A stretch of 63,064 bases of DNA, counting the filler, from Sphacelaria rigidula (taxonomy: Eukaryota): the NCBI GenBank assembly GCA_964200075.2. It is 11 parts of 11 records of this genome, joined end to end, with 100 filler letters (N's around TTAATTAATTAA, not from the genome) between each part and the next. Parts side by side here need not be neighbours in the genome. Positions count along the whole stretch, not along the records: positions 5,744 to 11,386 come from CAXNAA020025625.1; 10 more parts are not named here. The stretch is one strand, 5' to 3'. The notes under the pieces are model-generated. The model had not been told where the DNA came from. It worked only from the letters and a program-made list of their open reading frames with translations, and made no database searches. Shown here one piece after another: positions 5,644 through 57,467 of the stretch (position 1 is its first letter; every line of letters starts with the position of its first letter). The translations under genes and the position numbers were made by a program.

Positions 5644-5743
5644 NNNNNNNNNNNNNNNNNNNNNNNNNNNNNNNNNNNNNNNNNNNNTTAATTAATTAAN
5701 NNNNNNNNNNNNNNNNNNNNNNNNNNNNNNNNNNNNNNNNNNN
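5644..5743. other. Artificial contig linker (44N-TTAATTAATTAA-44N); same at 11387-11486, 17130-17229, 22873-22972, 28615-28714, 34357-34456, 40099-40198, 45841-45940, 51583-51682, 57324-57423
   Basis: Identical 100-nt spacers with an all-frame stop core; intervening segments are 5643 (x4), 5642 (x5) and 5641 (x2) bp, in descending order. Confidence 0.98.
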
Positions 5744-6023
5744 ATTCGTCACGAGTCGACTCATCATACCAAAACCAAGTAATTTCCAGACAAATCATTA
5801 GTTGTCCGACCCTTAAAAGTTTGCACTACCAAATCGTCTGGAGCGCAGTTGAGAGTATTCAATTTTTTCATATTGTGAGGCATACCCATCCGTACATCTC
5901 CCGCCCACGCTTTCCCCCCCCCCGTCCCCCGCCTGTCTCTCCTTCCCGCTCCCCTCTGCCCCCCACTTCCTCCCCATAACTCTTTTTTCCGCCCACTTCT
6001 TATCCCGTTCACCACCATTTGAA

Positions 6024-6362
6024 CTATTCCTTCCTTCTCACCTTCCGCACGGCCAAGCGCCACGCGTCGCGAACATGAGGTTCGCTTGCAACCGGAGCGC
6101 TGAGCCTCCTCCTACGATCACGCCTCCGACCACCAACTGCGGCGCCGGTATGGCCGCCGCGCATGTGACGTGCCCCCCCCATCACCGCCAAGGCCCTCTC
6201 AATATCCTGTAACAGCGCAAGCGCGCGTATCACGGCCTCTACTCCATGACCCCGACACGTTGTCGCTACCATCGGGTCTGAGAACAGATGAATGAGGGCT
6301 TCGCATCCCCACCGCTGCACGTCAGCATCCTTGGGGCATGAAGAAAGCGCGGCGAGTACAGC
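6024..6362 (-). CDS. SAM-TIR-ARM gene exon 6: armadillo-like repeat (AVLAALSSCPKDADVQRWGCEALIHLFSD...GVEAVIRAL)
   Basis: AG acceptor, phase 0; ARM-like VQ.WGC.AL pattern; ends at TAG 6024-6026, or at an alternative GTGAGA donor at 6041. Confidence 0.75.
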   Translation of the reverse strand, partial: AVLAALSSCPKDADVQRWGCEALIHLFSDPMVATTCRGHGVEAVIRALALLQDIERALAVMGGARHMRGGHTGAAVGGRRRDRRRRLSAPVASEPHVRDAWRLAVRKVRRKE

Positions 6363-6653
6363 CTTCACCAGCGCCGAGGGCAAAACGACAAGGAACAAGA
6401 GCGAAGCTATCTTCGCTGAAAGACTTCATTTGAGGGTTTCATTCTACTCCAGGCTGTAAGGAGTGATTGGAAGGGTGGAACAGCCTGATGACATTGGAGT
6501 TACTCCTCATCAAACGGTAAAAGGCTTGGTGATTGCGTTTCCCACCCTTCGTGGGGACTCTAGCCGCTGTGACACCCGACCATTTATAGGGGGCGAACGT
6601 CGTAGCCGGGTTGAGTGCCGTTTTTCGAACAAAGTGCATCACAGGCGACATAC

Positions 6654-6787
6654 CTTTGTCCCGCCTTGCCGCCGTACTGCGCCTAGCCCTTCACTGTCCC
6701 TGCCGGCGAGATCGGCGAGGCCCTTGCAACCCTCCCACTGATGGTCTCCGGAGAGAGGATTGAAGGTCATCCGCTTCACCAATAATG
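6654..6787 (-). CDS. SAM-TIR-ARM gene exon 5: armadillo-like repeat (LLVKRMTFNPLSGDHQWEGCKGLADLAG...AVRRQGGTK)
   Basis: CAG acceptor in phase 1 matches the preceding donor; GTATGT donor in phase 0; ARM-like M...p....Q..GC..L...GG pattern. Confidence 0.75.
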
Positions 6788-7046
6788 CTGATTTGTGGCA
6801 ACACGATGCACAAAACTTATGACTTGGCCTAAGGTGAATCATGCAACCCTTTGTGAAAAAACAAAATTTTCTCACGAGGTAAAACCTGCAATGCTCATCT
6901 GAAAAGCCGCGCAATAGCTCATTGCTCAACGAATTCTTCCGTCAGTGAATACCCAGCTCCTCTCCCCGCGGTTACCTTCAATGGTCAAACGACTAAGGCG
7001 AGCAACAAATGAGTACGCCTCCCCCCCCCCTCCCCCGCGCGGTTAC

Positions 7047-7977
7047 CTGCAAGCTCGTCGGTCTCTGCTTGCTCCTGTTTTATCAGCTCCAATAGTTCTT
7101 CATCTTTTCGCCACGGTACGGCCTCGCTGCCTCGCATACGACCCACTTGCTCTGCTGTTTGCGGCAGCCGCTCCCAGTTCCACGCCGCCCGCCCTTTCGA
7201 TCTCACTAACGTCGTTCCATCTTCCGTCGTCTCCCGTGAGACGCCTATCAAGCTCTCGAAGAGTGCCTGGTGACCAGTGGCCACCATGGGATCAAATAAC
7301 AGAGGTGGCGGAGCCAGCAAAGCGTTAATGTTCTCATCCTTTGTCGCTACCCCTGGATTCATCTCCGATCGTGACGCCCCCCGTTCTCCAGCGGGACGTG
7401 CTTTCAGCTCTTCGTTGGCTTCTGTATCGTCCAAGGTAGGGTCCCCCCCCGCTGGGTTTGTGTTTCCCACCCCACCTCTATTCTTGTCGTTCAAAACTTG
7501 CCCCTCCGCATCAGCGCTGAAGCCTCCAGCGTCGTCGAAACAGAAGCGAGTCGCTGCGATGACATCTCGCACCGAGAAGCGATTTCGATGCAGCTCTTGT
7601 TGAGTTGCTTTTGGCAGGGAGCGGGTCAGCTGCGTGTAAAAGGCGTCCACCTCGCGACGGCGTGACGCCGCAGATTTCCCCTCCCCCTTGGACCTGCCCT
7701 TACTGCTGGCAGGCAGCCGATCTTGGTCTATTTGGTCCGCCGAACTAATACAACCATTTGTTCTCTCTGCTGGATTGAGGCAAGCGTTTGCATGTTTGCT
7801 TTGATGCTGCGCCTTCGAGACCCAGATGGGCAGTTCGAGCGGCATGCCTGTCCCCGAGAGACGGATGGGTATGACTGGCACACCTTGACGAACCGCGGTG
7901 CACACTTCCATGAGACAGAACGGATCCTTGAGGCTGCCGGCCGACAGCAGCCATATAACGTTCAGAGATTTCCCCAC
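7047..7977 (-). CDS. SAM-TIR-ARM gene exon 4: TIR betaC-alphaC-betaD (VGKSLNVIWLLSAGSLKDPFCLMEVCTAVRQGVPVIPIRL) plus low-complexity linker
   Basis: tttttcag acceptor, GTAACC donor in phase 1; TIR_2-like motif with CxxE glutamate; lies in the 330-aa ORF. Confidence 0.8.
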
Positions 7978-8162
7978 CTGAAAAACGTCGGATGACGTCG
8001 ATGGATGCTGATCAGTTTCATGACTCGTGCGACGTCCTTATGGGAGACCCAGTCGGGAAAAAAAAGTACAGACTTCGAGGCATTCGTGGTTGGTACACAG
8101 CAACGGCCCACGCACTAAAAAGGCGACCACAGCATAAAACAAACATCAACCGGGTAGCCGAC

Positions 8163-8357
8163 TGCGGTGCGTGTCATCTTGCTGTTGTTGGCGTCATATA
8201 TCACCTCTTCTAGGAATGGACCATTGTTGAAGCCCTGAGTGCCGCCTCCGCGCAAGGCGACGTTGACCGTCGTGTTCTTCGGGGGGCTCCAAGTTGAAGA
8301 GATCGCGCGCCGGAGTTCTTTGGCAAACTTCAACGCTCCACGGAACACGCCTGCTTC
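8163..8357 (-). CDS. SAM-TIR-ARM gene exon 3: TIR N-terminal part (EAGVFRGALKFAKELRRAI...EEVIYDANNSKMTRTA)
   Basis: CAG acceptor and GTCGGC donor, both phase 0; the junction reads RTA|VGKS, matching the TIR alphaB A-V-x-x-S pattern. Confidence 0.7.
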
Positions 8358-8488
8358 CTGGTGCAGAATCAAAGCAAAGATTCGGGGGGACGAAACACAA
8401 GGTTGCAGATCTTCTGAGTGCACAGCTCCGGTAGCAGAGATTGACGGGTGCGCGGAAACGTTTCGGCTTTTGTCAGGGTTTCACGCGC

Positions 8489-8731
8489 CGGACACCTCAT
8501 GAGCTACCTGGAAATTACTTCTTGGTACTGTACTGGTCCGGATCACGAGCTAGGTCATGTGGTCACTTTTTTCCATACTTGTTCCCTACAGCGCTTGACA
8601 CCGAGCACGCGGAGCAGCGTAAAGGTGGCGCTTGACTTCTCGGACCCCGCTGTCACGCAATTCGTGTTTTTGGATAAGGGATCTGAGGGTTTCTTTCGAA
8701 TAGTTATTTCCGGTAGCTCATAAGCTGTCCG
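8489..8731. mobile_element. ~245-bp MITE with TIRs in an intron of the SAM-TIR-ARM gene; second copy, inverted, at 11660-11913
   Basis: cggacacctcatgagctacctggaaat ... atttccggtagctcataagctgtccg; internal similarity between the two copies. Confidence 0.75.
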
Positions 8732-8946
8732 ATGCGTGCAGGGCCCGTCAGGCCACTGGAGATCTATACTGGCGGCCGATAGATAGTCTGAAGCTCCATC
8801 ACAAAAACCGAAATTCCCCCACAAAGAACACTTGTGACCTAGAAGATCAAACTGCTTCGGATACACCCTCGTTTTTCTAGTTTGGCAGCAACAGTAATAA
8901 TGAGAACAGATATTTTAGGGTGCGAATGTTCGGTCAGGTACATTGC

Positions 8947-9181
8947 CTTGGTGAAGGTGACGTATGCGGCATTGTTCGACCTCAGAATCTTCATCACGGC
9001 AAACGTAAAGGGGGACCCGCTTTCCTCGATCGCGGCCATAGCCACCTCCGTGCTGTGCCTGTACTCCGAAAACAAACACGAAGAATCGAACATGACATCG
9101 TTTTCGGGGTAATGCAGGCGTAGATGAACGAACAGCACCATTTGTGAGAGCAGCGAAGGTTCTTCATTACCTTTATATAGC
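8947..9181 (-). CDS. SAM-TIR-ARM gene exon 2 (LYKGNEEPSLL...YPENDVMFDSS...AMAAIEESG...AAYVTFTK)
   Basis: AG acceptor in phase 2; the phase-0 join to exon 3 needs a GC donor (AAG|GCAATG); the final residues give a TIR betaA-like YVTF. Confidence 0.6.
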
Positions 9182-10026
9182 CTTCGGGCACATGAGAGTA
9201 GTACGGGGGAAAAGCTGTATATAGTTCGCGCACGAGGCACGACAGGCCGCCAGGACTCTGGGAAATGGACATTTCGAGAAGTGGCCAAGGTGATGTACAA
9301 CCAAGCCAGGAGAGGGCGAAAGTCTCGGCGAGCAGCTCATAGGCATACGCAAAGCGAATTATGAACCCAGACAGGCAATGATGTATCAAGTTCAGCTCCA
9401 GAGATATATCGCGGCACTAGGCCCCGCCCCTGACGTCCTTTGTGTGTTTTCGTGCGTTTTACTTTTTTTCTCGTCTTTACTTTTCTACAGGCGTATATGC
9501 AGGCGCATATGTTCTGATATTCTCGGCGCACGCGGGAGCGGGGCCTAGCCGCCGCCCCAGGCACGCCTGACACTAACTGAGCTAAACTGTACAAAGCTCG
9601 AAACACTTTGGTCGCGGACCGATTGTACTGAGAGTGACTCGTGATAGTGAGCGCCGATTTTTCGGGATCATAATTATTGTGTTTGCCAAAGTCAGAACGC
9701 CTGCTCGCTGAGAAACAGCGACGGTCAGCCACGTAGTTATGTACCAATTAGAGCCAGGACTATGGTCCTGTACAAAGCGTCTGAGTGCGATTGTCTCGCG
9801 GCCAGGCCGTATTGTACAGCCTCCCTGGCGATCAGTAGGCTACTCTGTCCAACCACGAAGAGAAACCCCCTTTTGCGCGGTCGGCACCACCTACCCCATT
9901 GCCGGTGGCGAAGATTGCTGCGTTGAACAAAATGTGGCAAAGGATGCAATGCCCCCCTAACCCACTGCGATCGCGGTGAAAGACCATAATAACGGGCGAG
10001 AGAGCGGGGTAGTCAAGGGAAACTAC

Positions 10027-10247
10027 TTTTCCGAGGCGGTGCTTCGCGATCGGAGCGCTGATATCTGCCTGAGATCGTGTAGGGCTTTGACGACAATCTC
10101 CTGCTGGGGCTTGAACGTGATGGCAAGGTCCGACATGAGAATCCGGAGAGCCGAGTCGTCCATGGAGCACACGATCCCGCCTCCCACCGCGCCATCAACG
10201 ACGCTTTGGCGGTGCTTCTCGAATGTTTCCCCGAAAGTGCAGACCAT
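10027..10247 (-). CDS. SAM-TIR-ARM gene exon 1 (probably 5'-incomplete): SAM-like domain
   Basis: FGETFEKHRQSVVDGAVGGGIVCSMDDSALRILMSDLAITFKPQQEIVVKALHDLR fits the SAM helix pattern; CAG acceptor; GTAGTT donor in phase 2 matches exon 2. Confidence 0.65.
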
Positions 10248-11659
10248 CTGATCATGCAGTTTCGGTTTTTGCAACAGGAAGTCGAGTCATCTCTTAGTCT
10301 TGCACATGCGTCGGTGGTTCTGTCACGATTATGAGCACAGCGCGCGACTTTCGGCAGGGGTGAGGGCTCAGTACCGCCGACAACGTTTGTCGTAACTGTG
10401 GGAAGCCGTCACGACCGTAAATCGAGCGCGTGATTAAAGTTATAAAGTATCATACAAGGGTTTTTGCCGTAGGATTTTTGCCAGGGAAAGTACTGACGCG
10501 CTTACTTTACTGCAACTGTACTGCACTGCCTGCGCCGAAAGGTACGACATATTTGCAAGTATTACCGAAGGGTGTGGTAAAAAACTGGTACAGTCCATTA
10601 TTAGTCTCACGCCGCATCGCCTTTGGCCTACACTGTGTACTGTTGCACAGGCTGGCTGGATCATAGCTTTGACCCAAAAATAAGTCGTCAGTGAATGCCC
10701 TTCGCAATACCTACCCAATAATCACATACATGTTATCATGCTGACCGCCATGGACAACTGAGGGGGCTGAGACAACTAAAGTTTTGTTCAAAACCAAAGC
10801 AATGGCGCTGAGGGCGAACATACGCCTCGACCACATAGCGCCCATGAAACGGTTCTGAAATAAAAGTACGGACGCCCAACACAATCCACACGCAATCTTC
10901 GCATGATTCAGGTAGCTATAATCGTAGAACAGAGACCAATCCCAAAATAGATCTACTGTCTAGAGTGCTGTTCAAAGAGATCCTCTGCAGAGCCTACGCA
11001 CAGGAGATTGAACAACGTCAGATAGGAAGATCCGAAAAAGACAAGAACAAAAAAAGGAAGAGCTGATGACAACGAGGAGGGAAAGCCAGGAACTAATCTC
11101 CCTGGGGTTCTGGTCAAGTAGCATCGTTATGGAAACACAACAGACAGGGCGTGTCTAGCGTACATACGGCGTAGTGCTATCAGCAATAAACAGAATCTGT
11201 TCAGAGTGTCCTATATTAAACCATGAAAACATGGGATACCATCTGTACGCCATGGAAATAAAAGTACAATGCACGTGTCCCGGGGGGGGGGGGGGGGGGG
11301 CCAAGGAGCACTTGGACAAAGTTTCGTTGCGTAACTCGAAAAAGGGAGGAAGGGGGGGGGTTTTGGCGCTAAAAATGCCCAAGAAANNNNNNNNNNNNNN
11401 NNNNNNNNNNNNNNNNNNNNNNNNNNNNNNTTAATTAATTAANNNNNNNNNNNNNNNNNNNNNNNNNNNNNNNNNNNNNNNNNNNNCCCCCCCCCCCCCC
11501 GCCCCTCCTGAAGGAGGGGGGGGTCAAATTGTGAAACACAAAAGAACAAAAAAAAAAGGGAGCCCCCCCCCCCCCCCCCCCCCCTCCCCGAAGGTCCTGT
11601 GGAATATCCAATATTTTCTTTTCAATATCTGCTCAGTACATATTTACCCACATGTCGCA

Positions 11660-49287: not shown

Positions 49288-49297
49288 NNNNNNNNNN
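49288..49297. other. 10-N scaffold gap inside a contig
   Basis: Ten N without the linker core. Confidence 0.95.
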
Positions 49298-57214: not shown

Positions 57215-57467
57215 CTGGCGGGGGGGGAACGGGGGAACGGGCGGGCGGGGGGGGGGGAGCGAACTCAGATATCTGCGTAATTTCCAACGAAGTAGAGACA
57301 ACGAAAACGTCACGTCTTATCACNNNNNNNNNNNNNNNNNNNNNNNNNNNNNNNNNNNNNNNNNNNNTTAATTAATTAANNNNNNNNNNNNNNNNNNNNN
57401 NNNNNNNNNNNNNNNNNNNNNNNGTACCGGCGGTGCTGCCACGCGCGTCAGCCGTGGCTTACCACTA

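Follow-up and report, generated by a model that had tools for sequence, protein, structure and literature searches.

The window, a stretch of 63,064 nucleotides from Sphacelaria rigidula (GenBank assembly GCA_964200075.2), is a mosaic of 11 pieces of ∼5.64 kb each. The pieces are separated by spacers of the form N44-TTAATTAATTAA-N44 at 5644-5743, 11387-11486 and then every ∼5742 nt up to 57324-57423, and one further gap of 10 N lies at 49288-49297. Neighbouring pieces need not adjoin in the genome and any gene reaching the end of a piece is cut. The piece at 5744-11386 (CAXNAA020025625.1) contains the middle part of a spliced minus-strand gene, which leaves the piece at both ends and encodes a TIR core followed by a conserved region, with candidate SAM-like and ARM-like parts on either side. 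This gene is real and is conserved in brown algae, from kelp to the early-branching Choristocarpus. An earlier note on this DNA had described it as a gene running from 10247 to 6024 and carrying the domain set of animal SARM1 in a permuted order.

Six exons are present on the minus strand. Exon 1 (10027-10247) is internal, with an acceptor CAG at 10250-10248 and, from its sequence context, a candidate GT donor at 10026-10025, and would encode the C-terminal two thirds of a SAM-like unit (...FGETFEKH...VVKALHDLRQ...). Exon 2 (8947-9058, or from an alternative acceptor at 9052) encodes ...TEVAMAAIEESGSPFTFAVMKILRSNNAAYVTFTK, ends with the proposed TIR strand A, or box 1, AAYVTFTK, and is followed by a GC donor at 8946-8945. 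Exon 3 (8163-8357; 195 nt, phase 0-0, third-position GC content (GC3) 0.68) is proposed to supply TIR helix A, strand B, BB loop and helix B. Exon 4 (7047-7977) carries the strand C-helix C-strand D core of the TIR, a variable insert and two conserved blocks. Exon 5 (6654-6787; ...HQWEGCKGLADLA...AVRRQGG..) and exon 6 (6042-6362, its end revised; ...DVQRWGCEALIHLF...GVEAVIRALALL) contain the putative first and second ARM-like repeats, the latter with a Gly/Arg-rich tail. The TIR domain is thus proposed to be spread over three exons and to be accompanied by at least two ARM-like repeats.

The reality of the gene is best seen by comparison with an annotated model of 735 amino acids from the kelp Undaria pinnatifida (P0038; EP00904_Undaria_pinnatifida_P000101, jgi/Undpi1 HiC_scaffold_28.g12545.m1), unnamed in its source. 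When P0038 was compared with the stretch by tblastn, collinear matches were found to exon 1 (E 1e-15), the 3' part of exon 2 (9.4e-12), exon 4 (1.7e-52), exon 5 (2e-16) and exon 6 (2.2e-19). Exon 1 corresponds to P0038 residues 25-85, exon 2 is collinear with its ...NTEASVAALEKSGSPYTFTVVRALRTHNAAYITFTK, exon 5 is 71% identical to residues 417-464 and exon 6 is 45% identical to residues 461-563. The product of the revised exons is identical to P0038 residues 25-562 in 263-264 of 510 aligned columns, and the order SAM-like, TIR core, conserved region, ARM-like is the same in both. Unlike this piece, P0038 has an extra N-terminal exon and, at the C-terminus, a charged region followed by an EH/EF-hand domain, and the extensions at either end fall outside the piece; it also has no equivalent of exon 3, hence lacks half of the TIR, which may reflect a missed exon.

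Beyond Undaria, 13 homologues of exon 4 were found (E 8.5e-159 to 1.4e-36, identity 80-35%), all of them exon-sized open reading frames (ORFs) on genomic contigs. Both borders of exon 4 are conserved since a Gln codon (CAG) stands immediately before the first conserved residue in all eight ORFs that extend upstream and the similarity among homologues ceases at ...LAG. A profile of the exon 4 family (A1) searched against 1.84 billion representatives gave 28 matches, comprising 18 family members and 10 distant proteins; the named sources of the family are Undaria (P0038) and Choristocarpus tenellus, the latter through a partial protein (P0022, NCBI CAM9607772.1). No homologue of exon 4 was found among 4241 candidate proteins of the longer class, and searching metagenome and genome contigs with A1 confirmed no related locus among 593 and 470 pattern matches, respectively.

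Joining the six segments as the earlier note had them does give an open frame of 2055 nt whose only stop is at its end. Each of the five introns has AG at its 3' end, and the donors are four GT and the one GC. Both outer boundaries, taken there as the ends of the gene, turned out to be splice sites. Position 10247 is an acceptor because CAG directly precedes it, because the match of contigs from two sequencing runs (X1 record 5 and X3 record 23) breaks off at 10247, with 9 and 12 unlike letters after it, and because P0038 has 24 additional N-terminal residues beyond the counterpart of exon 1 (...LSWHDV...ELADV). At the other end, the TAG at 6026-6024 is intronic because a donor (AAG|GTGAGA) is used at 6042/6041, because only 6040-6175 of the 558 letters of X2 record 9 fits here while its 422 further letters are absent from the piece, and because P0038 runs ∼170 residues past the counterpart of the exon 6 end (...AIKK). 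The runs X1-X3 were guessed to be RNA ('RNA?'), none being on record as such, and are treated as RNA-like because their short contigs break at splice sites; X5 is a DNA-like run, unbroken across 5894-10722, with a single-copy depth of 25.7 outside the repeat stretches described below.

The start of exon 2 also required revision. The 41 codons at 9180-9058, included when the exon is begun at 9181, have an intron-like composition (GC3 0.51, GC 0.44) compared with a GC3 of 0.81 for 9057-8947, and GC3 lies between 0.59 and 0.81 in the exons. They have no counterpart in the annotated exon 2 of P0038; the tblastn match does extend to 9108, but what it aligns there is the end of the SAM exon of P0038 (...PHQDVIIQALDELRR). 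In-phase acceptors with a pyrimidine tract occur at 9058 and 9052, after TTTGTTTTCGGAGTACAG, and use of the latter would give N-T-E..., like the N-T-E... of Undaria. A start at 9058 or 9052 is therefore more likely than one at 9181 on the grounds of GC3, GC, P0038 and the acceptors. So revised, the exons total 1914 nt (1908 nt with the 9052 acceptor) and contain neither stop nor frameshift.

The splice sites were checked against the RNA-like contigs and several were supported, fits stopping with unlike letters after 10247 (2 runs), 8356-8359 (2 runs), 6653 (1 run) and 6040 (1 run), but the donor of exon 1 was read through unspliced by one contig. Contigs of two runs end at the acceptor of exon 3: X2 record 13 fits 8234-8356 and then has 26 unlike letters, and X3 record 20 fits 8202-8359 and then has 12. 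The depths of 0.19 (8768-8956) and 0.25 (8957-9145) fit a placement of the 26 extra letters of X2 record 13 at 8946-8971, and arithmetic on these depth bins points to a join of exon 2 to exon 3 through the GC donor. Similarly, X3 record 17 lies on 6653-6790 and has 24 letters beyond that match; a depth of 0.48 in the bin 6311-6499 fits a placement of these letters at the start of exon 6, so that the same arithmetic suggests a join of exon 5 to exon 6. Among the matches listed, no contig bridges exons 1 and 2 or exons 3 and 4, and none covers 9059-9612 or the 5' part of exon 2 as first drawn; this is an absence of cover and not evidence.

The best characterised part of the protein is the TIR core at the start of exon 4. 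Residues 1-46 (7977-7840) comprise strand C, helix C and strand D, and Glu24 (...PFCLMEV...; codon GAA at 7906-7908) stands at the position of the catalytic Glu of NADase TIRs (PMC7075850). The 10 distant proteins found with A1 match only profile positions 1-57 (E 2.1e-6 to 9.1e-4) and every one of them passes the 28-bit cut-off of Pfam TIR_2, at 28.1 to 537 bits. With hhalign, the exon 4 family aligned to a TIR alignment with a probability of 98% over 46 columns, a score which is not independent of the A1 search as the TIR set used for this and for the hidden Markov model (HMM) tests was picked by likeness to the family. Conservation of residues M23, E24 and C26 is 90% or more across 24 sequences. 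TIR_2 was matched at E up to 1 by 14 of the 24 family members (best E 0.0055; P0038, E 0.054) and no other family recurs; exon by exon, one of the six translations here had any Pfam match at E up to 1, namely exon 4 to TIR_2. An AlphaFold2 (AF2) model of exon 4 with 24 sequences showed strand-helix-strand at residues 7-40, then a disordered variable insert and helices at 99-149 (predicted local distance difference test (pLDDT) score ∼79), the mean pLDDT being 54.8. Together the sequence comparisons give moderate confidence that the strand C-helix C-strand D core is homologous to bona fide TIR proteins. The N-terminal half can be drawn by eye from exons 2 and 3, where AAYVTFTK, EAGVFRGALKFAKEL, TVNVAL and PFLEEVIYDA fit strand A, helix A, strand B and helix B and the pattern resembles YAAFISYyR.EAG.DARLL of the relatives; these exons may thus encode that half.

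A number of results count against a complete and recognisable TIR domain. No Pfam TIR profile (TIR_2 PF13676 or TIR PF01582) is matched at its gathering score: none of the 24 family members reaches the 28 bits of TIR_2, and exon 4 itself matches over residues 4-43 at E 0.21 with 12.5 bits, a scan of unjoined exons in which only ∼40% of the TIR domain is presented to the profile. An HMM of the N-terminal half gave 1.9 bits for the joined exons 2 and 3 compared with up to 3.0 bits for shuffled sequences, adding these exons to a full TIR HMM gave no gain above 200 shuffles, and the Undaria model lacks exon 3 altogether. Alignments made with phmmer between this product and TIRs extend no further than 13 residues back into exon 3. 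PADLOC gave no match for P0038, exon 4, P0008 or P0020. Structure searches were likewise negative, with nothing at E up to 0.001 when the AF2 model was compared with PDB by Foldseek and no match, and no SARM1 chain, when PDB was searched with A1. The claim of a TIR domain with its Glu thus holds for the C-terminal core, by the A1 profile, hhalign and conservation, while the N-terminal half is a reading of sequence pattern and the Pfam threshold is not reached.

What follows the TIR core had been called a long linker, but two strongly conserved blocks lie inside it. One is helical (RRR..DAFY.QL...LPK..Q.ELHRNRF.VRDVIAA.R.CF) and the other is at the C-terminal end of exon 4 (WNWERLP...AVPWR.DEE..ELI..E.AE.D.LA). 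No known family was found for them in Pfam, searched with P0038, or in PDB, searched with A1. Residues 95-155 align collinearly with the C-terminal part of a TIR alignment in hhalign, though weakly (E 0.019, probability 2.5%), and this was not counted. In exons 5 and 6, two copies of the motif Q.(W)GC..L..L...........G...V..AL can be seen by eye. Atlas, a language-model search, placed exon 6 with Arm and ARM_LRRK2 clusters (0.91-0.95; recognition 1977, below 2300), residues 400-488 of P0038 matched Pfam ARM_LRRK2 weakly (E 0.17) and LRRK2 chains matched, also weakly, at E 1.2. For the exons and stop-to-stop ORFs of this piece, no match to Pfam Armadillo-type families (PF00514, PF23744 ARM_LRRK2) was found. 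The two or more ARM-like repeats of the earlier note are therefore backed by the two motif copies and by three weak but concordant signals, from Atlas, ARM_LRRK2 and the LRRK2 chains, and on this basis exons 5 and 6 are likely to be ARM-like.

The part of the protein beyond the piece can be read from P0038. Its C-terminus matches Pfam EF-hand_1 (E 2.8e-5) with a canonical EF loop, DKDKDGFISPQE, and residues 687-735 match the Eps15 EH domain 1c07_A (E 1.6e-4); the match stops in mid-domain, so the model is probably cut short at the C-terminus. EH domains are typical of endocytic adaptors. Between the ARM-like part and the EH domain is the charged region, which is probably coiled. At the other end of P0038, residues 1-6 (MGATAS) fit M-G-x-x-x-S, a pattern for N-myristoylation, and are a candidate for it.

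The SAM assignment of exon 1 draws on Atlas, whose top match was a SAM_1/SAM_2 cluster (0.88), treated as a lead only; nine of its ten best named matches belong to the same family or clan. The pattern W..DV...F......G..L..L....L......I..A...L fits a SAM-like unit, the first helix of which is proposed to lie in an exon upstream of the piece. Profile methods did not recover the domain. Pfam SAM (PF00536/PF07647) was not matched at E up to 1-5 by exon 1, its stop-to-stop ORF or P0038, and a search of PDB with the five-sequence profile A3, taken to E 10, brought up no SAM chain, the sole match being a 40-residue peptide at E 0.73. AF2 gave three helices for exon 1 from the single sequence at a pLDDT of 51.7. 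A wide structure search with this model had a best Z of 4.0 (NblA and other helical hairpins), which is meaningless. The SAM claim of the earlier note therefore keeps the Atlas lead but gains nothing from Pfam or PDB profiles, and given the sequence pattern we regard a SAM-like exon 1 as somewhat more probable than the contrary.

Some other observations concern the introns and the read depth of the piece. A segment of intron 1 at 9364-9435 on the minus strand bears a weak likeness to strand D of exon 4 (RQG..LVP..ISG....L.LPVWV; 10/24 identical, E 0.058 within the stretch) which could be the remnant of a duplicated piece; this and an echo of exon 2 at 8683-8603 (E 0.5) were judged probably to be chance. 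Summed contig depth in X5 is high at 5744-5932, 6878-7066, 8390-8767 and 10847-11224 compared with 25.7 elsewhere in the piece, the extremes being ∼330 (8390-8767) and ∼380,000 (6878-7066). In X1-X3 the depth is very high at three of these four stretches and only ∼0-10 at 8390-8767. All four are high-copy repeats or low-complexity tracts, including a G-run in intron 4, and two of them fall within introns of the TIR gene.

Reading P0038 and this locus together, the explanation we favour, and consider reasonably probable, is that the piece holds internal exons of a brown-algal multi-domain gene with the order SAM-like, split TIR, conserved region, ARM-like, charged and EH. The proposition that the exons were joined by chance, or belong to a dead pseudogene, could point to splice sites picked to keep the frame, the one GC donor and the three of six exon translations that have no family match of their own, but it is effectively refuted by the collinearity with the orthologue at E 1e-12 to 1e-52 per exon, by contigs that stop at predicted splice sites and by the absence of any stop or frameshift in 1914 nt. 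Another reading is a division into two transcription units. Here the SAM-like part would be a short gene or isoform ending at a TAG (10025-10023) with a 3' untranslated region (UTR) reaching at least 9613, the TIR/ARM-like gene would be separate and the SAM-TIR fusion would be an artefact of exon joining and of automatic annotation in Undaria. X1 record 4 (9891-10043) follows the genome without a break through the exon 1 donor, so at least part of the exon 1 RNA is unspliced here, and the unspliced frame stops at that TAG, one codon past the donor. Three more contigs from two other runs, X2 record 14 (9873-10023) and X3 records 21 and 22 (9613-9767 and 9846-10009), lie in the 5' part of intron 1, so that 9613-10026 (minus strand, single-copy at the X5 depth) appears in RNA-like contigs. 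Intron retention would explain this, as would a SAM-only transcript whose 3' UTR lies here, contigs being unable to show an RNA end. The SAM-exon ORFs of relatives end like proteins, 0-17 codons past the DLR motif (P0035, ...DLR; P0036, ...DLRRAVTC; P0037, ...ASEK), and the Undaria model is imperfect in missing exon 3.

These points, which all tell against a fusion of the SAM exon to the TIR exons, are met by others. The donor of exon 1 and both revised acceptors of exon 2 share phase 2, and exon 2 has a good acceptor (TTTGTTTTCGGAGTACAG|G) and no convincing start of its own, so that it looks internal. The distance between the stop and exon 2 is only ∼970 nt, and the counterparts of these exons are joined in this order in the Undaria model. 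A third species has its SAM-exon ORF P0036 and its exon-4 ORF P0002 each on one contig, 5257 nt long in both cases and so probably shared. The ends of the relatives' ORFs also have another reading. Where this sequence has AG|GCAG (10065-10070), the 93%-identical P0035 stops, directly after ...DLR. If its stop is TAG then G-TAG would equally be a GT donor, in the same phase as that at 10027 and at the position of the Undaria exon end, and the donor of the SAM exon may have moved by 39 nt between close species, as far as protein ends can tell. Two separate units are on balance unlikely, though well short of negligible, and it is likely, on the basis of the Undaria model, that at least one isoform joins the SAM exon to those of the TIR.

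Within the multi-domain gene that we favour, the SAM-like and charged regions would oligomerise the protein and so gather the TIR domains into an assembly that might cleave NAD+ or produce a nucleotide signal using the conserved Glu, while the ARM-like repeats and a Ca2+/NPF-binding EH domain might regulate the assembly or place the protein at membranes. Such an NADase or signalling activity is a tentative proposal. The alternative, to which we give about the same rather limited weight, is that the TIR is a non-catalytic scaffold or adaptor, or degenerate, in a protein of membrane traffic or signalling that works through its SAM-like, ARM-like and EH modules. The failure of all 24 members to reach the Pfam threshold would agree with this, as would a box 1 equivalent, AAYVTFTK, that departs from the usual ..D.FISY, the long variable insert after strand D and the adaptor-like EH domain of the orthologue. 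The Glu alone does not predict activity, since the same residue is frequent in TIR groups with no reported activity (PMC7075850). That paper also describes a Trp four residues before the Glu that contacts ligand in SARM1, and this position is F here, varies between F, Y, L, G, S and V in the family and is W in the nearest TIRs. Against a degenerate domain stands the near-invariance of M23, E24, C26 and the core across 34-56% identity, which points to a constrained site, and the closest relatives, themselves TIR_2 proteins, carry the W..LE motif. A bolder proposal, that brown algae independently built a SARM1-like NAD+-consuming switch in a new order, tied to Ca2+/endocytic signals through the EH/EF-hand, with a SAM-only isoform regulating assembly and a role in cell death or immunity, is improbable as things stand.

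Bacteria, plants and animals use TIR domains as NAD+-cleaving enzymes of immunity or cell death, and how often eukaryotes have rebuilt TIR switches from the same modules is an open question on which this gene bears. A TIR family extending from Choristocarpus to kelps provides a candidate TIR signalling protein for brown algae, an independent multicellular lineage, and it carries SAM-like, ARM-like and EH modules in an order absent from the papers searched. The present value of the gene is limited by the weakness of the SAM and ARM assignments, by a TIR of which one half is read from pattern and by a SAM-exon fusion that depends on the Undaria model. Were the bolder proposal true, the switch would serve cell death or immunity in a lineage for which the literature searched revealed no TIR-based system. 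That search, with subscription journals and supplements outside it, found no paper on a brown-algal TIR family or on this architecture; the architecture is thus undescribed in searchable papers and the Undaria model is public but unnamed. Brown-algal candidate immune receptors that have been described are NB-ARC-TPR and LRR-ROCO proteins (PMC11378527).

The earlier note compared this gene with SARM1. Animal SARM1/TIR-1 is an ARM-SAM-SAM-TIR NADase with its TIR at the C-terminus, whereas here the order is SAM-like, TIR, conserved region, ARM-like, charged and EH, with one SAM-like unit. Common to both are modules of these three kinds, provided that the weakly supported SAM and ARM assignments are right, a Glu at the catalytic position of helix C and, by analogy, a working idea in which oligomerisation would be combined with an ARM-type regulator. 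The SARM1 group has the motifs PDVFISY in box 1 and E(R/K)LEAG in the BB loop (PMC7075850); inspection of the exon 2-3 translation found AAYVTFTK in box 1 and no E(R/K)LEAG. The gene is not a SARM1 orthologue, because its modules stand in another order and include a single SAM-like unit, neither the box 1 nor the BB-loop pattern of SARM1 is present and its closest TIRs come from protists. The permuted SARM1 set of the earlier note thus survives as an order, SAM-like-TIR-ARM-like, that matches Undaria, but with weak SAM and ARM modules and no kinship with SARM1.

The nearest TIR cores are those of a 'TIR domain-containing protein' of the haptophyte Chrysotila carterae (UniRef100_A0A7S4F2G1, P0029) and of metagenome proteins among P0025-P0031. 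In these protist multi-TIR proteins the core reads V.rS..lvllqt..vL.rPW.LLE...A.r.GvPviPv, compared with V.KSLNVIWLLSAGSLKDPFCLMEVCTAVRQGVPVIPI in the algal family (E 2e-6 to 2e-4 in the search of the whole library). They contain at least two complete TIR_2 domains above the Pfam cut-off, whereas the algal family falls below it. Their W is replaced in the algal family by F or a variable residue, and neither the algal insert nor the conserved region C-terminal to it is found in them. Across the nearest relatives as a whole (P0025-P0034) there are two to seven tandem TIR_2 domains; P0033 has seven TIRs with WD40 propellers, and P0029 matches Thoeris ThsB-type TIR models in PADLOC. Choanoflagellates offer a further parallel, having cytosolic TIR proteins with Arm or Ank repeats as well as SARM1 homologues (Richter et al. 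2018, PMC6040629). These proteins likewise show TIR with Arm-type repeats and the NADase Glu outside animals, but they belong to the Holozoa lineage and are likened here by description and not by sequence. The resemblance of the algal domain set to that of SARM1 is one of independent assembly and not of descent.

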